Assembly: GCA_964016885.1 (NCBI GenBank)
Contig: OZ024746.1
Span: 79,484,001-79,548,000 of the forward strand
Direction: 5' to 3'
Length of the DNA stretch: 64,000 bases
From: Eledone cirrhosa
Taxonomy: Eukaryota
Each line of letters begins with the position of its first letter. Within the stretch, counting starts at the first letter, position 1. Both the position numbers and the translations under genes were made by a program. The notes under the pieces were generated by a model that was given only the letters and a program-made list of their open reading frames with translations, made no database searches and had not been told where the DNA came from. Shown here one piece after another: positions 21 through 62,313 of the stretch.

Positions 21-280
21 GCATACAGGTACACATACATATATGTACGCATCAGTTTAGCGGACGCTTATTATAGCACCCGCTTTGTTCGTTTGTAAAC
101 AAACTGAACAGCCTGAATTTATGCCGCACGGTGTTAAGGCAACCACGTCACCTTTTTGTTCAACACTGACACAGGAATGATGTACTAGTTTCAAGCTTGT
201 TAGCTATCATCAGCACCGTATACCCATCTGCCAGATAGTTGAACGTTCGAAAGTATATACTTTCGATATATCACTCGTTT
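21..280 (-). mobile_element. Diverged non-coding HHR-bearing element related to the 467-bp unit at 50965-52630
   Basis: Flanked by (TA)-rich arrays. Aligns by eye with 51040-51250, e.g. gacacaggaatgatgtactagtttc..tcatcagcaccgtatacccatctgccag vs gacaaggaatattgaactagtttc..tcatcagcaatatttacctatcttccgg. Confidence 0.7.
179..217 (-). ncRNA. Minimal type I hammerhead ribozyme motif
   Basis: Minus strand reads GGTG CTGATGA tAGCT aaca AGCTt GAAAC TA GTA CATC. It has the core, a 4-bp stem I, stem II and a palindromic stem III (ACTAGT). There is a U-U at the base of stem II. Confidence 0.8.
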
Positions 281-655
281 GTATATATGTTTGTATGTAT
301 ATATATACATAAATATATATATATGTATATATATATGTAAGTATGCACACGTATATACACACACATATATATATATACATACATACACATATGTGTATAT
401 ATATGTGTGTGTGTTGTCTGTATACTTACATTTATGTATCAGCTGTGCTAGGGCGACAAATAAAATTCGAAGTTTCAGCTTGGTCTCTCCAACTGACTCC
501 GAGAAGATAACAAGCTTAAACGTCCATGTGACTACTCCTTTGCTCACAAAATATAATGTACACATCTTAGTGTACACAACTTTACATGTATTGAATGCTC
601 ATTGAATTAAAGTTTGAATGTTTAAGTAATATCGTATTCGAAACATCCATTCTAT

Positions 656-716
<61 letters not shown>

Positions 717-720
<4 letters not shown>

Positions 721-1265
721 ATAATAATATATTTGAAGACTAAAATCCAAAGAGGGTTCGATAAGGATAAATATATATCAAATATATAAGAACCCTAGAG
801 CAATTCTTTGCTTAAACTTTAATCTGTTATTTTAATAAATATATATATATACGGGGTAATAAATAATAGTTAAATGCAGTCCACTTAGGTATAGTCCAGT
901 TATGGTATTCCAGGTAGTGGATGATATTAACGCTTGGCTTGGTTTGACTCAACAAGGCGTTTTCATAGTGATGCTGCGGGTATGCTGTAATTCCTATGTT
1001 GTAAACACTTGGAGTAATAATAAATCAGGAAAGAAGGTTGACATGGTTTGCTATACAAAAAAGGTTTTTAATCTCATAGCTGACAATTGTTTCTCTGAAC
1101 TGGTAGGTCTAGAGATCGCTATTCGCTTGTTTTCACGTTACTCGATCGAGTAACGTGAAAATAAGCGAATAGCGATCTCTAGACCTACCAGTTCAGAGAA
1201 ACAATTGTCAGCTATGAGATTAAAAACCTTTTTTGTATAGCAAACCATGTCAACCTTCTTTCCTG

Positions 1266-4021: not shown

Positions 4022-5953
4022 CACGATAACAACTAACAGCGCTGCGATCGAATGTGGCTTTTTAGCCCAGCCAATGATCTAAAATGTCTTGCACAGAGTC
4101 GGCAACCAAAACATTCACTGGGAATAGCAGGCTGTGGTTGGAGTTCATGTACTTTTGCATGTCGTTTGAGCCCTCATGTTGATTTACATTCTCTACCACA
4201 TGTTTGGCAAGCATGATGAGTAGCATCTCCAACAGCAGCCTGGTAGTCAACCACTGGTCTTACTTTATGACTGCGAAGATGACTTTAGAGTCCAGCTTTG
4301 CTTAAGCAGAGTCTCGCACAGACACTGCATGTCAGCACCATAGGAGGACCCTCTCCGCCTGGAAGTGCAACAGCAATGCCCTTCCTCACATCCCGCTTTA
4401 CTTTCTCGTATGCGATTTGAGATGCCTCAAAGGCAACTTTTCCCTCATATACAGTCTTTCTCCATTTATTACGATCAGCAGCAATATTTTCCCATGTATC
4501 AGCAGAGATGTTAGCGTCTTTCAAAGAGACTTTCAAGGAATCCTTATACCTCTTTTTTGGTTTATGTGGCGGTCGTTTTCCTTTAACTAACTCTCCATAA
4601 AAGAGTTGTTTTGGTATTCTAGAATCCTTCATCCTGGCAAGGTGACCACTCCAACGGAGTCGTTGCTTAAGCACAAGAGCTTCTATACTGTCACCCATAG
4701 AGCTTTCCAAAATCTCCATATCACTGATGTGGTCCCTCCAGTGAACGCCATGGATCCGTCTGAGACACATCTGATGGAAACGCTCCAATTGCTTAAGGTG
4801 GTGTCGATATGTGACCCAGGTCTTGCAGGCATAAAGAAGAGAAGAGAGCACACCTTTACCGTTGTCTTCTTGCATATGTCTCGCCGACCCCAGAGTCGCC
4901 TTTCTAGCTTTCCGAAAGCATCACTTGCTTTCCTAATCCTAAGTGAGATTTCACTATCAAGGTTGCTGTATCGATTGACAGTGCTTCCCAGGTAGACAAA
5001 CTGATCAACCACTCCAAGTCGTTTACCATGCACATAGATATTTGGTTCAGTGTACTGCTTACCAGGGTCAGGTTGGTACATGACGACGGTTTTCTTGAGA
5101 CTGACAGTCAATCCTAGGTCAGTGCAAGCGTCAGAAAATGTATTCAAAATGTGCTGCATATCACTCTATGTGTGCGCTACAAGATCGCAATCATCTTCAT
5201 ACAAGAGGTCTCTTATGATTGATGTAAATATTTTTGTCTTTGCAGCAAAGCGCCTGATGTTAAATATGCTGCCTGAGGTTCGATATCGGATGTAAACACC
5301 ATGCTCGCAATTGCTGAATGCAATACAGAAAACCATTGCAAAGTATATGGCAAACAGGGTCGGTGCTGGAATATCCCCCTGTTTCACTCCATTTTTTACT
5401 GAGATAGGCTCCGACATGTTACCTCCGACATTAACCCAAGCCTTCATGTCGTCTTGGAAAGACCTAACTAAAGCAAGGAACTTATCAGGGCAACCAAGTT
5501 TCTGGAGAACCTTCCATAATGCATTTCTGTTAACAGTATCGAAAGCTTTTGTCAGATCGACAAAAACCTGATACAGATCCAAACCTTGTTCCGTGCACTT
5601 CTCCTGGAGCTGTCTAGCTGAGAAGATCATATCAGTAGTGCCGCGTCCAGCACGAAAACCAGATTGACTTTCAGGGAGATCACAATCTGCAATGTGTGTC
5701 AGCAGACGGTCCAGAAGCACCCTACATAAAACTTTCCCTACGACAGAAAGCAATGATATACCTCTGTAGTTCCCACAATCATTCCTGTTACCCTTTCCCT
5801 TGTACAAGACCACCATTACTGCATCTCTCCAGTCCTCAGGTACGGATTCATTAGCCTATATCCTGCCAAACAAAGAGTGAAGATGTTGCAGGAGTCTCTC
5901 ACCACCATATTGTAGGAGCTCAGCATGTATGCCATCCATATCTGGAGACCTTC
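4022..5953 (-). mobile_element. 5'-truncated, disrupted RTE-clade LINE (RT + C-terminal C2H2)
   Basis: Motifs NYRGISLL, QSGFRAGRGT, FVDLTKAFD, GVKQG, YEDD (degenerate YADD), YLGS, LRWSGH and CSVC..H..H. Has stops and a frameshift, with a (GT)n 3' tail. Confidence 0.93.
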
Positions 5954-27075: not shown

Positions 27076-27455
27076 ACAAGTAAATATTTTTATAACTGAT
27101 ATAAAGCACTCGACAAGTATTTGGAGTAGATATACGATATTAATAAATGGAAAGTATATTTATAAAACCATATTTATTTCATTATACATATTTCAGGGAT
27201 ACCAAATTAAATTATGGTATGCCTTCATCAGACAAAATACAATATATAACAGTTTTACAAATAAGCTTTGACGTACTCTTTTAAAATGCAATCATTATTT
27301 TGGGAAGCCAAAGGGTACGTCAAAGCTTATTTGTAAAACTGTTATATATTGTATTTTGTCTGATGAAGGCACACCATAATTTAATTTGGTATCCCTGAAA
27401 TATGTATAATGAAATAAATATGGTTTTATAAATAGACTTTCCATTTATTAATATC

Positions 27456-27460
<5 letters not shown>
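27074..27460. mobile_element. Head-to-head inverted element in (TA)n with an HHR-like core in each arm
   Basis: Arms 27131-27280 and 27311-27460 with a 30-bp spacer. CTGATGA AGG..CCT GAAA TATGTA at 27360-27406 (+) and 27185-27231 (-). Stem I is poor. Confidence 0.78.
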
Positions 27461-42255: not shown

Positions 42256-42470
42256 GAATGCCATGGTTGACGGAGGCTCGGCTCTGTAAGGTATAGTAAT
42301 TTTTAACCGTTAAAACAATTGTAAATTGTTTAAAACTTGAACCAAATTGTTGATAAAGACACCCTCCTCCTCGTGAGAGGGGTCTTTCTGTCTGTTATTT
42401 GGCCCTTCGGGGTTAAATAACCAGTTATTGGGGTTTTGTACCCAAAATTTCATTTTAAACAAAAAACAAC

Positions 42471-44561
42471 ATGGCTACGAAAAAGAAATTTCATACGTCA
42501 CTCCCACTCATTCCGTCTTCTTCTTCCTCAATCATCACTACAGCAGAGAGAAGATTGTCTCTCTCCCTCCCTTCTTTAAATGTGTCTCTCTCCCTCCCTT
42601 CTCTTTCGCAAGTGACGAAAGAAAAGAAAAGTCTCGTGCAAAGCGTGCAAGGTTTCTCCACGACGACGACAGCGACGAAACAGGTGTGCGGGAAATACGA
42701 AAACCCAGTTCATTCGTCTGACGTCAGGAATAATAGCAGTAGCAGCCGTAATAACAACAGCAACAGTGACAATGAAAACAACAGTAGCAGCCGCAACAGC
42801 ATCACCAGCAGCATAAACAACAACAGCATTAGCAGCAGCAACACCAACAACAACCACAGCAACAGCGGCGGAGGCAGTAGTCGTAGTACCTGCAGCAACA
42901 ACAAAAGTACCAGCAGCTCTGACGACAACAACAACAGCAGAGAAAAACCAATCTCATTTGCAGGTATTGCGAAAAACTTGGAAACAATCCTCATAACAAA
43001 TGAGGAATTAGAGGAAGCGAAGAAGATGGTGACAAAGAACGGACACCGAGCAATCTGCAAGGCAGCGGAAAAATTTTTCAAAACCCAAGAGCACTGTACG
43101 GTCACGTACCGTACAGTAAGTACAAAATCCCGTAGGGTGGAAAGAGCCACAGAGGCCCAAATACAAAAAGCCTTGGGGTCTGTGTGGCAGCGGAAAACGC
43201 ACATCACCCGAGGCAAAAAATATGCCACCGTAGACGTACTTTTTGCCACACCCCAGGAGGCAAAGGCCCAATCAGTAGTGACCCTAAGGAGCGAGGAAAT
43301 GGTGTTGGTGCCCTCCTACTGCGGGCAAAAAATTGTGAGGGTCAAACTGACCCACGTCCCACCCGGAATGACCCCTTCTTGGCTGGCCGCGTCTGTCCTC
43401 GTTGAAATCGAGGACAAAACAACTGTACTGCAAGTACAGAAAAAAGTAAGAGAAGATTGGGTCGGCTCCTCCATTGAGATGCTAATCCAAACCAACCAGG
43501 AGTGCATCGAAGCTATCCCGGATGTGATAGACTTCGATAACGGCATTCAACTGCCCATAAGTGTTGAGGGCAAACGCCCGAAATGCTTTCGCTGTGGATC
43601 GAAGACTCACCTCAGGGCCTTCTGCAACGAGAAGACCCTGAGAAAGGAGAAAACCCCCCTCCTTCCGAATCCGGCTCCACGGCTACCGGCAACAGGACAA
43701 GCGGCAACCAGGAACGATAGGTCCGTGGCACCCATACCCACTCCACGGAAATCAAAAACAGCAGCAGCAGTGGAAATATTAACAACAACAACAGCAATAC
43801 CAAATGCAGCTGCAACAGAGACTCCAGTGCAAACATCACCAACAACAAGTGAAAGAGTGGAGCTGGTACCCCTCCCCGACCTCACAGAATCAGACATGGA
43901 GTGTGAGGTGGGAGAGGGATGGCAAAAGGTCGTAAGAAGGCACAAACGCAGAAGCAGCGCATCGTCGCCTTTGAAAAGGGAGGAAAGAAATGAGAAAAGG
44001 GTAAAGTCTACTGCAAAGAGACCCACAGCAGCAACAACACCAACACCATCACCACCCACACTAGCGCCACCATCACCACCGGCGACAACCCCACCGCCAA
44101 CAACACCTTCAACACCACCACCACAAGCACCAACATTGCAAACACAACAACAAAACACACACACCCAGCAACAACGACAAGAAAATAGCAGAACCACACC
44201 CCACCCCCAGAAAAACAAATGCACGGCAATAAATACACACAACAAGAAACTAATGACTTACATAATTGAACACACAGACATTTCACAACAGGACTACATA
44301 ATACCAGCACCAATCAAAACGCCAACTAACATAAGACTGCTAAAAATAGCACAGAAACAATACACAAATATTAAAACGAAATTCCCCAACGCAGTTGGTG
44401 ATTTCAGGGACCTAGGAGGAACCATCAATCGAAGAGTATACTCAGACATTCTCTTAGAAGAGCCGACGACCAGCCGAAGGGACGATTCAACGGTCCCTTC
44501 ACCAGACGATCAAGTGAAAAGGGATGTAAAAACCATCCCTCCTCTACCAAAAGTACGGTAA
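42471..44561 (+). CDS. LINE ORF1p, nucleic-acid-binding protein with a CCHC zinc knuckle
   Basis: 696-aa ORF with CFRCGSKTHLRAFC and low-complexity S/N and P/T tracts. The true start codon is uncertain. Confidence 0.88.
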   Translation: MATKKKFHTSLPLIPSSSSSIITTAERRLSLSLPSLNVSLSLPSLSQVTKEKKSLVQSVQGFSTTTTATKQVCGKYENPVHSSDVRNNSSSSRNNNSNSDNENNSSSRNSITSSINNNSISSSNTNNNHSNSGGGSSRSTCSNNKSTSSSDDNNNSREKPISFAGIAKNLETILITNEELEEAKKMVTKNGHRAICKAAEKFFKTQEHCTVTYRTVSTKSRRVERATEAQIQKALGSVWQRKTHITRGKKYATVDVLFATPQEAKAQSVVTLRSEEMVLVPSYCGQKIVRVKLTHVPPGMTPSWLAASVLVEIEDKTTVLQVQKKVREDWVGSSIEMLIQTNQECIEAIPDVIDFDNGIQLPISVEGKRPKCFRCGSKTHLRAFCNEKTLRKEKTPLLPNPAPRLPATGQAATRNDRSVAPIPTPRKSKTAAAVEILTTTTAIPNAAATETPVQTSPTTSERVELVPLPDLTESDMECEVGEGWQKVVRRHKRRSSASSPLKREERNEKRVKSTAKRPTAATTPTPSPPTLAPPSPPATTPPPTTPSTPPPQAPTLQTQQQNTHTQQQRQENSRTTPHPQKNKCTAINTHNKKLMTYIIEHTDISQQDYIIPAPIKTPTNIRLLKIAQKQYTNIKTKFPNAVGDFRDLGGTINRRVYSDILLEEPTTSRRDDSTVPSPDDQVKRDVKTIPPLPKVR

Positions 44562-44596
44562 GTGGTCTTTCCCATCTTTTCCACTCTATTTTAAAC

Positions 44597-47500
44597 ATGA
44601 CCTCACTCAGAATAGGCAGCATAAATGCGCGTGGCTTGGGGTCGTCATGGAAGCAGGGTCACCTGCTCAACGACCTCAGGTCACTAAACATAGATGTAGT
44701 GGCCATCAGCGAGACCAGAATCTCCGAAGCACGGGCCTTCGCACCGATCTTCGGCGGCTACGATGTGTACGCATCTCCCAGCCGTCCTGGATCGGGTGGA
44801 GGAGTTGCTGTGCTTTTTCGGAGAGGTTTGGATCTCGCCATACGGGCCATCTTCCTGGACCCAGAGGGTAAGCTGGTGGTGCTGGACGTGACCAGCGGAG
44901 ACGGGCAAGCTTTCAGGCTAGTGGCCGTCTATGCCCCGACAGGAGCAGGGCGGCCTGATTTCTTCCGGCGTCTGGAGACCTTTCTTGGAACGTCCCGCTC
45001 TTTAGTGTTAGTGGGCGACTGGAACGGGATCTTAGATGCACGCTGGGACTGTGTGGGATTAGCGGATAGGGGTGGAGGGTGCAAGAGCCTCACCAACCTG
45101 CTCAGGCGTTTTGAACTGTCTGACAGGTACCGATTGGATTTCCCGAATGTGCCAATGTGGACTTGGACAAACCGCATAGGGTCATCCAGATCATATCTAG
45201 ATAGAGTATTTTGTAGGGAAATAGATAGGTCTAGCATAGGCTGTCCACAATTCAAGATAGTCAGCTACACGGACCACAAATTCGTGATCTGTGTGCTTGA
45301 CTTAGATAGGCTTCATAGACGAGGACCCGGCTACTGGAAGCTAAACGCGTCCTTACCAGCGCGCAAGGCCTACAGAGACCGGATTAGCGAACTAGTTAAG
45401 CGGGCGTTGACGGGGGCCATCGTCAACAACAAGTGGTGGTTTGCTCTGAAAAGAGCGATTAGAATAGAATCGATTAGGTTTAGTAAGGCTTTAGCAATAG
45501 AGAAAAATAGAGCAGAGGGAGAACTAGTTAGAAAATTAGACGAGGCGCTTAGCAAAGGCATTGCGACCGACGTGCTTGCGGCGAAATTGGTTCTTGACCA
45601 ATTCTTCAATGCAAAGCACGAAGGCTGCGTTGTCAGAGCTAGGGTGCGTGCTCTCAGACACGAGGGGACGAAAGCCGTTCAATGGGCCCGAGTAGCGGAG
45701 GCGCGTCGTGGCAACAAAGCCACGATCCGGTCTTTGGTGGACCACGACGGGCGCATGCTACTCGATCCCGGGCAAATGTGTGAAGCTTTTCAGCGACACT
45801 TCGCTCAGCTGTTCGGGGGCAGCGGGGGGCCGGGTAGAGGGATGGACTTTAGTGTCTACCTCGACGGACTGCCGCGGCTCTCGGCCACTGAGGCGAAGTG
45901 TTGCGAAAAGCCGATAACAGCCGCTGAAGTACGGGAGGCAATGACTGGCTGCACAAGGGGTAAATCGCCTGGTTTGGATGGTCTGCCCTATGAACTTTAC
46001 GTACAGATGCCAGACTTGTTCGGAGGCCTCTTGGCGGACGTCTACTGCAACTGGCAACAGAACGGGAGAATTCCCAGTTCTGTGAGCCGAGGAGCGGTGG
46101 CACTGCTGAGAAAGGATCCGAACAAGGGGGATAACATAGACAATTTCCGGCCCATAACTCTGCTAAACACAGAGTTTAAGATTTTGGCCAAGGTGCTAGC
46201 AAAGAGGTTGGCGCTTGTCGTTGGTGGTCTGGTGGGAGAGGCGCAGACATGCGCCATTCCCGACAGATCCATCCACGACAACCTCCACCTCATGCGATAC
46301 ATCGTAGAGAGGGTAGCTAGGGAACCTGGCACGGGTGGGTCCTTGATCAATTTAGATCAGTCGAAAGCTTTCGATAGGGTCGACCATCGTTACCTAGCGG
46401 CAGTCCTGAGGGCGGCTGGCTTTGGGCCCGTCTTCAGAGGCTGGATCGCTGCCATGCACAGCGACATCTGCTCTGTGGTGAGAGTGAACGGTCACCTGTC
46501 GGAACCGTTCAACATCATGCGCTCGGTCCGCCAAGGATGTCCCCTCTCGTCCCTCTTGTACGTATTGACTCTCGAGCCATTACTGCACAAACTGGAGACG
46601 TTGAGGGGAGTCCCGCGCGAACTAGGATGCGGAAGATCCGTGTCAGCATATGCGGACGATGTCACCGTAGTGGTGTCGAACGCCAAACACATCGAGGCGA
46701 TCGGCACTACACTAAGAGAATACGAAGCGGTGACAGGAGCAATGATCAACCAGGAAAAGTCAGTGGGCCTGCAGCTCGGCACCTGGAGAGGCAGGTCCAT
46801 GCCGTCCAACAGCGTCGTCGGGCGCTGGACGGACGGACCGGTTAAATTGCTAGGGGTCTGGTTCGGTCCGGACCTCCAGACGGACAAAAACTGGGACGAG
46901 GTGACGAGCAGGGTGGCTTCTCTCACCCAGAAATGGGCGGAGAGGAAGCTATCCCTGAAAGGTCGAGCGGAGGTGGCTAACGCGTACATCGCGTCTGTCA
47001 TCTGCTACCGCCTAACCGTCGTACCTTGTCCTAAGCCTCGCCTGACTGCGCTGGAGCGTTTGCTCTTTCGCTTTTTGTGGAAGGGACGTGCTCCGATGGT
47101 CAGGCGGTCCATCTGTTGTCAACACCCGCTACGTGGAGGGCTGGGCATGCCGTGGCTGATGATGCGCAGGCACGCGCTCAGGCTACGACATCTCCACCTC
47201 TTCCTCGACGGTGATCAGGTGTGGTCGCCGTTTGCTAGACGCGTTTTTCCCCAGCTCGTTTCCTTGACGGAGCTGCAGTCCTGGGTCAAGCGAAGACCGA
47301 GAGGGAGCGCCTGGAGACTGGAATGTCTTCAGGCGCTCACAGCCCTCGACCAATCGGGCAATGTGATCGGTGGAAACTCCACCTCGGCGTTCTATAGAGG
47401 ATTAGTGGAGGGGAAGAGCGACGACGTACTTGGGGAAACTCTAGGCGTCGACGAAAATCAACTAGCCAATCTCTTCGGAAGAACTTTCGGGCCGGGGCCT

Positions 47501-48016
47501 ATGGACAACTTCCAGAAATCTCTGGCCTGGCAGTGCTACCGAGGAGCCTTGCCAGTTCGGGATAAACTCTACAGGCATGGAGGTGCCGTCAGCCGGGCAT
47601 GTCCGAGATGCGCGCAGGGCGACGAAACCGTCCTGCACGCACTCGTCCAGTGTCCGAAAATTGCTGACTTGTGGGTTTATGTCGAACACCTGCTGTCGCG
47701 TTTAGGACGGATCCAGCTATCATCTGAGTCCATCGTGAGGATTGCCCCGCCCTCCTCCTTTAGCCGGGAAGGGCAGGCAGTTTTTATCTGTCTGGTGGCC
47801 ATGGCGAAAGAGATAGTATGGTGGACACGTTTGAAAGGGCTGAAGACGAGCACTTACCTCTTCGGTGATGCTCTGATTGACTTTTTCAAATTTCATTTGA
47901 AAAGGAAAATCAGAGTAGAGAGGGAAGTGCTCTCTTCCCAGCATTTTGTTGAAAGATGGGTGAGAGAAGCAAGAATGGCCCGAGTGAATGGGCCGACTCT
48001 GAGTATATATCTGTAA
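44597..48016 (+). CDS. LINE ORF2p: AP endonuclease + reverse transcriptase + C-terminal Zn finger
   Basis: SINARGL, SET, VYAP, GDWN, YLDR, TDH; KSPGLDG, FRPITLLN, DQSKAFDRV, RQGCPLS, YADD; CPRC..ETVLH....C. Confidence 0.97.
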   Translation: MTSLRIGSINARGLGSSWKQGHLLNDLRSLNIDVVAISETRISEARAFAPIFGGYDVYASPSRPGSGGGVAVLFRRGLDLAIRAIFLDPEGKLVVLDVTSGDGQAFRLVAVYAPTGAGRPDFFRRLETFLGTSRSLVLVGDWNGILDARWDCVGLADRGGGCKSLTNLLRRFELSDRYRLDFPNVPMWTWTNRIGSSRSYLDRVFCREIDRSSIGCPQFKIVSYTDHKFVICVLDLDRLHRRGPGYWKLNASLPARKAYRDRISELVKRALTGAIVNNKWWFALKRAIRIESIRFSKALAIEKNRAEGELVRKLDEALSKGIATDVLAAKLVLDQFFNAKHEGCVVRARVRALRHEGTKAVQWARVAEARRGNKATIRSLVDHDGRMLLDPGQMCEAFQRHFAQLFGGSGGPGRGMDFSVYLDGLPRLSATEAKCCEKPITAAEVREAMTGCTRGKSPGLDGLPYELYVQMPDLFGGLLADVYCNWQQNGRIPSSVSRGAVALLRKDPNKGDNIDNFRPITLLNTEFKILAKVLAKRLALVVGGLVGEAQTCAIPDRSIHDNLHLMRYIVERVAREPGTGGSLINLDQSKAFDRVDHRYLAAVLRAAGFGPVFRGWIAAMHSDICSVVRVNGHLSEPFNIMRSVRQGCPLSSLLYVLTLEPLLHKLETLRGVPRELGCGRSVSAYADDVTVVVSNAKHIEAIGTTLREYEAVTGAMINQEKSVGLQLGTWRGRSMPSNSVVGRWTDGPVKLLGVWFGPDLQTDKNWDEVTSRVASLTQKWAERKLSLKGRAEVANAYIASVICYRLTVVPCPKPRLTALERLLFRFLWKGRAPMVRRSICCQHPLRGGLGMPWLMMRRHALRLRHLHLFLDGDQVWSPFARRVFPQLVSLTELQSWVKRRPRGSAWRLECLQALTALDQSGNVIGGNSTSAFYRGLVEGKSDDVLGETLGVDENQLANLFGRTFGPGPMDNFQKSLAWQCYRGALPVRDKLYRHGGAVSRACPRCAQGDETVLHALVQCPKIADLWVYVEHLLSRLGRIQLSSESIVRIAPPSSFSREGQAVFICLVAMAKEIVWWTRLKGLKTSTYLFGDALIDFFKFHLKRKIRVEREVLSSQHFVERWVREARMARVNGPTLSIYL

Positions 48017-50920: not shown

Positions 50921-50968
<48 letters not shown>

Positions 50969-51190
50969 AATTAAGTTAAAGATGTACATCCATATATGTA
51001 TACTGAAATACTAGTATGTATATGAATACACACACGTATACATATGTAGATGTACCAAGTTTTTTCACTGGTCACTTTACTGTGAGTGGCCAGCTATTCT
51101 GTATGTAAACACACAGACAAACCGGTTTTTAGAGTCATACTGGTTTTTGAGGAAACACCTTTCCTCTATTCTCCAGAAAGCCAGACAAGG

Positions 51191-51235
51191 AATATTGAAC
51201 TAGTTTCGTTGTTGTTACAACTCATCAGCAATATT
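51191..51235 (-). ncRNA. Minimal type I hammerhead ribozyme
   Basis: Reverse complement of 51826-51870. Confidence 0.9.
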
Positions 51236-51825
51236 TACCTATCTTCCGGCCTCTCTAGAGAATCGTAAAAGCACATATCGTTATATGCTTTTTCTATGAA
51301 AATTAGTAGTGGGCAGACTAATTTGCATAGAGTGTGAGTAAGTACCGGTTCAACGGAGACGATAAAAACAAATAACGAAACGAAATTAAATTTCGTTTCA
51401 TTTGTAACTCACTTTTGTATGACTGACGCTTAAACAATTAAGTTAAAGATGTACATCCATATATGTATACTGAAATACTAGTATGTATATGAATACACAC
51501 ACGTATACATATGTAGATGTACCAAGTTTTTTCACTGGTCACTTTACTGTGAGTGGCCAGCTATTCTGTATGTAAACACACAGACAAACCGGTTTTTAGA
51601 GTCATACTGGTTTTTGAGGAAACACCTTTCCTCTATTCTCCAGAAAGCCAGACAAGGAATATTGAACTAGTTTAATTTCGTTTCGTTATTTGTTTTTATC
51701 GTCTCCGTTGAACCGGTACTTACTCACACTCTATGCAAATTAGTCTGCCCACTACTAATTTTCATAGAAAAAGCATATAACGATATGTGCTTTTACGATT
51801 CTCTAGAGAGGCCGGAAGATAGGTA

Positions 51826-51870
51826 AATATTGCTGATGAGTTGTAACAACAACGAAACTAGTTCAATATT
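51826..51870 (+). ncRNA. Minimal type I hammerhead ribozyme
   Basis: AATATTG CTGATGA GTTGT aaca ACAAC GAAAC TA GTT CAATATT. Perfect 7-bp stem I, 5-bp stem II and palindromic stem III. Predicted cleavage after 51863. Confidence 0.92.
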
Positions 51871-52292
51871 CCTTGTCTGGCTTTCTGGAGAATAGAGGAA
51901 AGGTGTTTCCTCAAAAACCAGTATGACTCTAAAAACCGGTTTGTCTGTGTGTTTACATACAGAATAGCTGGCCACTCACAGTAAAGTGACCAGTGAAAAA
52001 ACTTGGTACATCTACATATGTATACGTGTGTGTATTCATATACATACTAGTATTTCAGTATACATATATGGATGTACATCTTTAACTTAATTGTTTAAGC
52101 GTCAGTCATACAAAAGTGAGTTACAAATGAAACGAAATTTAATTTCGTTTCGTTATTTGTTTTTATCGTCTCCGTTGAACCGGTACTTACTCACACTCTA
52201 TGCAAATTAGTCTGCCCACTACTAATTTTCATAGAAAAAGCATATAACGATATGTGCTTTTACGATTCTCTAGAGAGGCCGGAAGATAGGTA

Positions 52293-52337
52293 AATATTGC
52301 TGATGAGTTGTAACAACAACGAAACTAGTTCAATATT
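52293..52337 (+). ncRNA. Minimal type I hammerhead ribozyme (next tandem copy)
   Basis: Same motif 467 bp downstream. Confidence 0.92.
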
Positions 52338-52626
52338 CCTTGTCTGGCTTTCTGGAGAATAGAGGAAAGGTGTTTCCTCAAAAACCAGTATGACTCTAAA
52401 AACCGGTTTGTCTGTGTGTTTACATACAGAATAGCTGGCCACTCACAGTAAAGTGACCAGTGAAAAAACTTGGTACATCTACATATGTATACGTGTGTGT
52501 ATTCATATACATACTAGTATTTCAGTATACATATATGGATGTACATCTTTAACTTAATTGTTTAAGCGTCAGTCATACAAAAGTGAGTTACAAATGAAAC
52601 GAAATTTAATTTCGTTTCGTTATTTG

Positions 52627-52665
<39 letters not shown>

Positions 52666-52807: not shown

Positions 52808-52810
<3 letters not shown>

Positions 52811-53013
52811 AACGAGTAGGACCCCGACGGCTGAGCTCAAGCCGTTTCGACGGCTAATTCTGGACTAAAATTTTAGTCCAGAATTAGCCGTCGAAACGGC
52901 TTCAGCTCAACCGTCGGGGTCCTACTCGTTCCTATTACACACTCTACTACCCTAAGTATTGAGTACTTTGGTGCGTTATGGTCCACCTGGTTCCTTACTA
53001 CATTTCCTTCTTT
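52808..53013. mobile_element. Family H copy 3 (opposite orientation)
   Basis: Palindrome 52807-52934 centred on 52870/52871. The long arm is homologous to the reverse complement of 14014-14100. Confidence 0.87.
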
Positions 53014-60194: not shown

Positions 60195-60239
<45 letters not shown>

Positions 60240-60273
60240 AGATTTGAATGGATACAGTTTAGTTGAAAGGAAT

Positions 60274-60390
60274 TTATTGACACGTGTTTCTATAACAGTT
60301 ACATAACCTAAAACAGCTATCTACAAACTTTTAGTTATGCAGACATTCAATATTTCAATGTTATTGTTTACTGTCATTTCATCAGAATAA
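60274..60390 (-). ncRNA. Hammerhead ribozyme motif in the inverted pLTR
   Basis: Reverse complement of 62050-62166. Confidence 0.75.
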
Positions 60391-60570
60391 TATTACTGAG
60401 GACCTATTTAGTTTTTATAGAGAATATTAGGAGGAAGGGGTGAAGTTGTTAGAAGAATAGTTGAAGGAGTGGTTTTTCGATAGCAGTGAGAATTCTTGGT
60501 GGCAGTGATTAATTAGATTCCCATCTGTTGTTTTGACATTTTTTATAGAATATATTATTGGTTATTTTTC

Positions 60571-61095
60571 AAAAAAACAGTAGACAATACACTACAGAAC
60601 ATAAATAAACCACACCTAAGTTCGTCCGCAATACTACTCCAGAGAAAACCCAACGTACACAACTGTAACTGCACCTATCCTGACAACTGCCCCCTCGGCA
60701 ATAACTGCCTGGAAAAAAATATTATTTATAAGTGTACCATTAAATCCGGAGGCAACGAGTGGTATTACGTGGGATCAACGGCAACATCGTTTAAATCTCG
60801 ATTGTATAGGCATTCTTACTCAATAAAACACCAGAGCCAAAGAAATGTAACAACTTTAGCAGAAAAAGCTTGGACGCTCAGGGATAGCAATCAAAAGTTT
60901 ACCCTAAAATGGGAAAAATTAGCTAAAACCCAGAGCTTTTCCAGGAGCCAAAATTTCTGCAAATTGTGCAATCTTGAGATTTATTACATAATCACACACA
61001 AGAAGAAACTGCTGAATAACAGAATTGAACGAACATTATTCTGCCGTCACAGAACTAAAACCCTTTTTTCCCACTACAAGCAGAATATTACATAA
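60571..61095 (+). pseudogene. Penelope (Neptune-type) Zn-finger linker + GIY-YIG endonuclease, 5'-truncated but open
   Basis: CNC..CPLGNNC..NIIY..YVGST..FKSR...H..W..CKLCNLE..LLNNR.E....CRH. Confidence 0.9.
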
Positions 61096-61364
61096 AAGAG
61101 GGACATCCCCCAACTATATAAACCTTAATCTAGTTAGAAAAATATAAAAACAATCTCTTCTCAACATATATTAATAACCTTAAATTACCATACTAATAAT
61201 GAAAAGATATGCTGATGAGAATAGGTACAAATATGCGATAATGAATGTGTCTAAAAACGTCCATAAGTATGTATATATATGTGAAAATGTATATAAATAA
61301 GTAAATATATATATATGTTTGATGTGTATAGTTAGATGTAAGTGTATTCATGTATTAAAGTGCT

Positions 61365-61401
<37 letters not shown>

Positions 61402-61424
61402 ATATGTGTGTATATATGTATGTG

Positions 61425-61457
<33 letters not shown>

Positions 61458-62049
61458 GTATATGTATATATGTATATATATATATGTGTATGTATGTATG
61501 TGTATATGGATGTGTATGTATGTGTATGTGTGTACACATGGACTAGAGTATGTATGTATATATGTGTGTGTCTATACGTGTGTATATATAAAGATAAGTT
61601 GAGTATGAAAATGTATACACATGAGCGCGTATGTATGTACATGAATACATGTGTGTATATATATGTGTATGCATGTGTATATATATGTAAGTATGAATAT
61701 GTGAATTGTGAGTATATGTATTTTGTAGAGGTGTGCAAATATATTTGTGTGTGAATGCGTGGGTGAAAGAATACGTACACTTGAAAGAAAAATTTAAGTC
61801 TGAATGTTAAGTGCAAACACAAAACCAACCACGCATATCTTTACTATCTCTAATCCTTCTATAGATTTAGAAAAATAACCAATAATATATTCTATAAAAA
61901 ATGTCAAAACAACAGATGGGAATCTAATTAATCACTGCCACCAAGAATTCTCACTGCTATCGAAAAACCACTCCTTCAACTATTCTTCTAACAACTTCAC
62001 CCCTTCCTCCTAATATTCTCTATAAAAACTAAATAGGTCCTCAGTAATA

Positions 62050-62166
62050 TTATTCTGATGAAATGACAGTAAACAATAACATTGAAATATTGAATGTCTG
62101 CATAACTAAAAGTTTGTAGATAGCTGTTTTAGGTTATGTAACTGTTATAGAAACACGTGTCAATAA
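62050..62166 (+). ncRNA. Hammerhead ribozyme motif with long stem II
   Basis: TTATT CTGATGA aATGACAGT..ACTGTTATa GAAAC ACGT GTC AATAA, with an A-A at the base of stem II. Confidence 0.77.
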
Positions 62167-62313
62167 ATTCCTTTCAACTAAACTGTATCCATTCAAATCT
62201 TTCTATTTTTCTCCGGATTACTTTTGGAACTACAACTGGAACCGTCGAGCAAACTCTACGTGAGCTGATAATCTACTGTGTGTAATATTTATATTACAAC
62301 ACAACGGAAAAAA

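Follow-up and report, generated by a model that had tools for sequence, protein, structure and literature searches.

Metazoan non-LTR retrozymes are, in the accessible text of two reports (PMC7229834; bioRxiv 10.64898/2026.07.22.740005), non-coding tandem units of low GC content that carry one type I hammerhead each, are predicted to be highly self-paired and coexist with Penelope-like elements (PLEs). All of these traits recur in the family described here, the units of which are slightly longer than the 150–450 bp given in the available part of Cervera and de la Pena 2020 (PMC7229834). Circles and cleavage have been shown for known metazoan retrozymes in the accessible text and are predicted for the present family. 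In the accessible part of Li, Clavereau and Pollet 2026, one out of nine predicted Xenopus dimers was cleaved (bioRxiv 10.64898/2026.07.22.740005). The available portions of these papers propose mobilisation of animal retrozymes by PLEs without demonstrating it and treat the non-ribozyme part as a predicted fold. A search of openly readable main texts found no account of covariation outside the ribozyme in animal retrozymes; for cephalopods, the same texts offered nothing on elements of this kind other than a tally of 235 hammerheads for the giant squid (PMC6962438, partial text).

Hydra-clade PLEs provide a further point of comparison. According to the accessible sections on these elements (PMC8557442) and on the PLE tail (PMC11167929), (TA)n targeting, an inverted 5'-truncated arm and two RT start sites are common to PLEs and the present family, as is a hammerhead in the repeat (PMC8557442). 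The family differs from PLEs in having no ORF and a tail of 56–69 nt, not 30–40 nt (PMC11167929, partial text). For known retrozymes, the available portions of the literature do not describe insertion in two arms, a pair of fixed ends, hairpins that covary or an octamer.

The DNA that was analysed, referred to as the window, comprises 64,000 nt of the Eledone cirrhosa genome (GCA_964016885.1, contig OZ024746.1, positions 79,484,001–79,548,000). The stretch at its beginning is read here, with a probability of about 0.8, as a truncated non-LTR retrozyme with a conserved chain of hairpins that was copied into (TA)n by a Hydra-clade Penelope-like enzyme. The class of element is already known; what is added is a mapped covarying scaffold together with the start sites.

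The retrozyme is a solo, truncated copy of family A1 at 21–264 on the minus strand, comprising 244 of about 466–520 nt. It is 98–99% identical to the best copies in the genome (query 17–260), and a DNA search with it, in which 40 of 1478 candidates were scored, listed 54 matches at 96–100% identity. The copy starts 51 nt upstream of the core, within the palindromic hairpin U (249–264, minus strand), and its 3' end lies inside the family's internal (TA)n tract; positions 1–20, at this end, are (TA)n target or internal tract that extends past the start of the window. Neither the octamer region nor either of the usual end sites is included. Two sites differ from the family majority, one of which abolishes the fifth stem I pair. 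The locus (L001, with 1500 nt of flank on each side) contains a single hammerhead; at least two consecutive hammerhead units, by which Li et al. define an active element, are absent here and present at other loci of the family. With one hammerhead and no octamer the copy should be unable to yield a monomer circle, and it is likely a dead element. The hairpin region has a GC content of 0.40–0.45, i.e. below 50%. Protein-coding capacity was not found, as ORFs of at least 100 aa overlapping the copy all run through AT microsatellite; no LTR, PBS or PPT was noticed in the copy by eye, and no PLE homology was found at the locus. Head-to-head with the copy lies an older fragment of the tail region of family D (263–475, plus strand), 94% identical to a family D copy over 52 nt, with longer matches at 70–85%. 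The junction of the two shows a 5-base overlap within hairpin U, and the upstream part of family D is absent from the left flank. On either side of the element lies a copy of a different short repeat (window 717–840 and L001:1283–1430), the two copies being direct and diverged.

The type I hammerhead occupies 178–218 on the minus strand. The core CUGAUGA is found at 213–207, stem II (AGCU/AGCU, loop AACA) at 206–193 and GAAA followed by the palindromic stem III ACUAGU at 192–184, and cleavage is predicted after A183 in GUA. Stem I reads GGUG/CAUC (217–214/182–179) in the window copy and CGGUG/CAUCG in family A. All hallmarks of the type (CUGANGA, GAAA, NUH, stems I–III) are present, except that a U.U stands at the foot of stem II where G-C is the norm; family B has G-C at this position, a difference that the first-pass annotation did not mention. 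The U.U resembles axolotl HHR_Amex2 and the palindromic stem III HHR_Amex1, as far as the accessible text describes them (PMC7229834). As stem III is short and palindromic, dimeric cleavage is implied (PMC4209133, partial text). Counterparts in the 467-bp unit of family B lie at 51833–51863 (plus), 52300–52330 (plus) and 51198–51228 (minus), and the core, AACA loop II, ACTAGT stem III and stem I and II motifs quoted by the first-pass annotation are all present in both the window copy and this unit. The ribozyme is closed by a predicted extended stem I with internal loops (158–244, minus strand; arms 238–244/158–164, 229–234/166–171 and 223–227/171–177), one pair of which is G.U in A1, A-U in A3 and G-C in family D. 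An Rfam scan gave no match to any family, hammerhead models included, at gathering score; at a low threshold a weak HH9 match was obtained (15.5 bits against a gathering score of 52, E 0.79), and other low-threshold matches at 1–600 were discarded as matches of AT microsatellite to miRNA models.

The 3.0 Gb genome, which is rich in microsatellites, was searched for further copies. The 35-nt ribozyme of this subfamily of A has 10,471 exact copies (control 0), and a hammerhead pattern common to A and B has 23,689 matches against 2 for a reversed control. Sorting of 175 non-redundant copies from best-hit and first-listed loci, which are not a random sample, gave subfamilies A1, A1b, A2 and A3, an older dispersed family D, and B1–B4. 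Identity is 82% among A1–A3, 68–75% between A and D and about 59% between A and B; as a superfamily, A, B and D share 53–68% identity, a conserved fold and the octamer. Family A is young and related by common descent to the 467-bp family B and the older family D, with the same order of elements. Its full unit measures about 466–520 nt, varying in the internal (TA)n tract, and it forms tandem arrays of that period as expected of retrozymes at the family level. Many array units are perfect and ORF-less on both arms; individual old copies decay with CpG-rich, neutral-looking changes. Judged by sequence features, family A as a whole can be classed with the metazoan non-LTR retrozymes. Both arms of some insertions carry the same private variants and units alternate in L208 and L060–L065, which fits a single template, possibly a dimer or circle.

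A further repeat, family C (L007, L010, L025, L117–L146), has 310-bp units with an ACGCGU stem III; when a looser hammerhead pattern gave 19,725 matches, the majority of the first 100 belonged to this family. It has the same two-site ends, 26 nt apart, nests in the internal (TA)n tract of family A and shows three hairpins in similar places by eye; no octamer was found in it. Mixed A/B/C arrays were considered as template switches, a reading that was dropped because (TA)n connects the parts of the arrays examined, for which nested insertion is the better explanation. ADAR editing was likewise dismissed as the driver of paired changes, there being no significant excess of A>G over T>C in 10 subfamily samples; one A array (L101) shows 9 A>G against 3 T>C relative to the family majority, a possible editing scar.

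The first-pass annotation had claimed that structure beyond the ribozyme is under selection. Conservation of such structure through compensatory change was borne out by double changes, by pairing in 23 copies and by RNAalifold. The changes in stems I and II that were offered in its favour are present but lie within the ribozyme and hence cannot show selection beyond it. Window 21–280 folds with z = -4.7 and the matching 261 nt of the family B unit with z = -5.9, with 0 of 200 shuffles as stable in either case. Folded separately, the two give near-identical multi-hairpin layouts, and predicted circles are 66% paired. In an alignment-blind test, which gave weaker evidence, structure was predicted from A1 alone and scored on other subfamilies aligned with MAFFT, in which hairpins C and D fell out of register. 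Pairing was kept in 20 of 43 changed states in A/D (null fraction 0.31, p = 0.008), with double changes in 7 pairs against 3.8 expected (p = 0.085), and in 9 of 17 in family B (p = 0.029), with one double change (p = 0.42). Across region 44–158 of 23 real A/D copies, 89.4% of cells were paired compared to 83.8% in shuffles (0/500 as high) and 27–45% in slid-partner controls. Five pairs had changed on both sides against 3.4 (matched by 24/500 shuffles), and further pair types did not rise over shuffles in these copies.

Eight subfamily contrasts, with hairpin registers set by hand, contained 13 double changes that keep pairing and none that break it (null mean 3.9); the resulting p of about 1e-5 overstates independence, as some contrasts share branches, A1–A1c repeats one A1–A3 change and some A3–D doubles may equal two single steps from a G.U ancestor. 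Single changes kept pairing in 9 instances and did not in 3. A covariance model, the check that the first-pass annotation had proposed, was built solely from hairpins C-D-E of A/D, outside the ribozyme. It placed the four family B regions of the window, in register, immediately below the self hit with 26.2 bits, compared to 7.2 bits with a sequence-only model and 12.9 bits for family B antisense; as matches in AT-rich background reach 21.6 bits, the margin is modest. B2, B3 and B1c scored 16–25 bits. The idea that this scaffold is also shared by the Hydra pLTR, by family C and by seven old hammerhead singletons was rejected, since the model found none of these in register.

Hairpin E (59–84, minus strand) is the best-supported covarying helix in the 23-copy alignment, where 5 of its 9 pairs have changed on both sides and 97.1% of cells are paired; RNAalifold recovers it unaided. 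Between A1 and A3, eight changes form four matched pairs (conditional p = 0.0017), and over all contrasts the independent doubles number about 7, not 8. A wobble path from C-G via U.G to U-A can be followed at one pair in real copies, and one G.U persists in 16 of 23 copies, across A1–A3. This is the neighbouring hairpin that had initially been set aside as being of different sequence, and it turned out to hold the strongest evidence of covariation. Hairpin C (136–154, minus strand), the next clearest case, is present in 12 out of 12 subfamily sequences, with 3 double and 6 single changes that keep pairing and none that breaks it; when A3 is compared with B1, both partners have changed in 4 of its 6 pairs. 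Its lower pairing in the 23 copies (73%) results from the A1 loop being one base shorter.

Hairpin D (86–110, minus strand; loop UUUA at 99–96) is the one first noticed, as a hairpin with a taaa loop. Both quoted instances exist (91–104 and 51101–51114), given on the strand opposite the ribozyme; on the ribozyme strand the loop reads UUUA and the A.C mismatch of family B becomes a G.U pair. The loop lies about 84–91 nt from the cleavage site. The stress laid on this hairpin was misplaced as regards covariation, its sequence being mostly invariant: three pairs are aligned in a nearly invariant core and there are 0 double changes within lineages. Outer pairs change from U-A to C-G in family D and A1c, U-A stands against G.U between families A and B, and B2/B3 show three single changes that break or gain a pair. 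RNAalifold on 10 family B copies returned hairpins C, D and the core of E. In hairpin U, a single pair differs between A3 and family D by a double change, from G-C to A-U, and the 5' part of a long AT-rich, low-complexity hairpin F is predicted at 29–48 (minus strand).

The ends of insertions were examined for evidence of how copies are made. Copies sit in (TA)n as back-to-back arms. The 66 end rows of family A include 17 at 247–251 nt after the cleavage site, 20 at 302–310, 15 in the internal (TA)n tract and about 8 others that are alignment breaks; of the 26 of family B, 10 lie at 228–234 and 12 at 302–304. Two end sites, homologous in A and B, thereby hold 37 of 66 and 22 of 26 rows, respectively, and family D copies also end at them. 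Both ends could be called in 16 two-armed insertions (10 from A, 5 from B and 1 from C, two being nested composites), every one of which has one end of each kind. In the window this is seen in a two-armed insertion of family B (50966–52633), the minus arm of which runs to site 1 and the plus arm, of about 2 units, to site 2, with octamers at 51733, 52200 and 51321. The family thus carries the PLE insertion signature of an inverted 5'-truncated arm, two end sites and a (TA)n target. As far as the accessible text goes, the ends match the PLE tail with its two RT start sites (PMC11167929), and the layout agrees with that of Hydra PLEs, in which arms are inverted and insertion is biased towards (TA)n (PMC8557442).

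A candidate enzyme is also at hand. The window contains a 5'-truncated Hydra-clade PLE (60237–62257) with an inverted pLTR arm, its own two end sites and a GIY-YIG C-terminus at 60517–61095. The Hydra-type family is very young, with many open frames of 785 codons, 150 scored matches that are 98–100% identical and 61,429 first-look genome candidates for the endonuclease region. Its ORF, 773 aa from the ATG, contains all five motifs of the Hydra clade, RWK, DKT, CxCx5C, CxxC and CxH (PMC8557442 section 11, partial text); Pfam gives no match for it and the clade assignment therefore rests on motifs. The two end sites of this element are represented by 17 and 4 ends. Its tail region contains by eye a UUUA-loop hairpin like hairpin D, possibly by chance. 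Penelope-like homology was found in 12 of 193 loci searched. Three direct junctions, at L250:2245 (=L004), L247:4909–4919 (=L081) and L246:5468 (=L168), join retrozyme arms of A1, A2 and D to 5'-truncated Hydra-type ORFs without an intervening microsatellite. Each may be a chimeric insertion, or else a later insertion accompanied by deletion. At L159, where family D stands beside an upstream ORF as if its pLTR, the junction runs through (CT)n(TA)n. No ORF with RT and GIY-YIG flanked by the window repeat, as in an autonomous Hydra-clade PLE, was found at the L001 locus.

On another reading, A, B and D would be no more than pseudo-LTRs belonging to autonomous Penelope families, truncated copies of their full mRNAs, and the hairpins would be pLTR or UTR signals. 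The shared end signature and (TA)n target, the PLE ORF fragments that abut some copies and a relationship of retrozymes to pLTRs found by Li et al. (bioRxiv 10.64898/2026.07.22.740005, accessible part) speak for this. It is nevertheless unlikely given the arrays of perfect ORF-less units on both arms and the small share of loci with PLE homology; moreover, A and B gave AT-tract matches only to the one full Hydra unit and pLTR compared, and the PLE arms at the direct junctions show no A- or D-type repeat end within the fetched stretches. A different objection concerns the compensatory changes themselves, which could reflect the homogenisation of inverted repeats by repair of the DNA or by RT template switching. 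The elements are rich in palindromes and inversions, the double changes are mostly two transitions and B1 folds equally well on both strands, all of which speaks for this mechanism. Copy correction would on the other hand be strand-blind and erase mismatches such as the persistent G.U and the wobble intermediate of hairpin E. When both strands were folded without G.U, 11 G.U (about 8–9 distinct sites on the ribozyme strand), 2 A.C and 7 other mismatch contexts were counted, and of 12 related sequences, 10 folded better in the sense than in the antisense orientation. Both observations favour selection on RNA of ribozyme polarity, and we regard homogenisation as improbable.

Adoption of the RNA by the host as a structured regulatory RNA is the remaining alternative and the one to which we attach very little credence. 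Fold and octamer are deeply conserved between families that are only 53–68% identical, and the accessible text of PMC7229834 describes related retrozyme circles as abundant in tissues of mussel, coral and axolotl. Conservation is however found between amplifying subfamilies and not at fixed loci; old copies decay in the neutral-looking manner noted above, the window copy is truncated and nothing in the present data points to a host function for the family. The initial description of a family of functional RNAs and not a chance repeat is accordingly upheld as to chance, while the function in question most likely serves a selfish retroelement of the known non-LTR retrozyme class. The fold was likely selected for the element's own spread.

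For a retrozyme copied by a Hydra-clade enzyme, the following cycle can be envisaged. Arrays would be transcribed from an internal promoter including the octamer, neighbouring hammerheads would cut as dimers via the palindromic stem III into monomers of about 470 nt, and these would probably be circularised. A Penelope RT-endonuclease would then nick both strands of (TA)n, and two cDNAs would start at two fixed sites about 56–69 nt apart. If new subfamilies arose solely from copies in which the fold is retained, selection would leave compensatory changes; pairing is likely kept because the folded RNA is what the Penelope-type enzyme copies. Expression, cleavage and circles are thus expected of the family on this model. 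It is tentatively suggested, with somewhat more doubt than confidence, that hairpins C-D-E and the two start-site hairpins form an ordered scaffold which, together with an octamer promoter, is kept across lineages only about 55–60% identical, and that this scaffold is the cis signal by which the Hydra-clade enzyme binds the RNA circle and starts RT at two sites. In that case, the direct junctions would be single insertions in which one enzyme copied both RNAs. The comparison of subfamilies marks the kept helices, the copying start points and the candidate enzyme clade, and its outcome is a defined RNA-protein pair with specific mutants for an in vitro test.

The octamer ATGCAAAT lies upstream of the core by 88 nt in A, 85–89 nt in family D and 99–100 nt in B. 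Among 37 other old hammerhead loci, 5 likewise have it 84–104 nt upstream against an expected 0.09, though not all of these loci are independent. Since the complementary arm that accompanies it in A and B is missing from family D, the octamer is likely a DNA motif. The octamer detail of the newt satellite 2 promoter is reportedly found in Coats et al. 1994. Newt satellite 2 is a hammerhead tandem repeat with an internal promoter of snRNA type in the accessible text of PMC2220036, to which the conserved octamer upstream of the core may be compared. An snRNA-type promoter is not supported here, as the exact octamer was found within 330 nt upstream of U1 genes at 0 of 13 distinct loci. The U1 snRNA genes themselves (L226–L245) form 2.67-kb tandem arrays with upstream motifs near -255 and, centred on TCAGT, near -57.

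Several other elements were noticed in the window. At 1022–1270 and 52810–52935 lie long inverted repeats, perfect or nearly so and bordered by (TA)n, which are probably other fold-back mobile elements. A small fold-back element at 27150–27460 has two inverted hammerhead-like motifs (27231, minus; 27360, plus) and resembles the repeat terminating the Hydra-type ORF of L250. A broken piece of an RT-coding retroelement is found at 4285–5855 on the minus strand (RVT_1 in 5166–5855). Two long overlapping ORFs at 42459–48016 on the plus strand belong to an apparently intact LINE, the 1204-aa ORF of which contains endonuclease, RT and zf-RVT domains.
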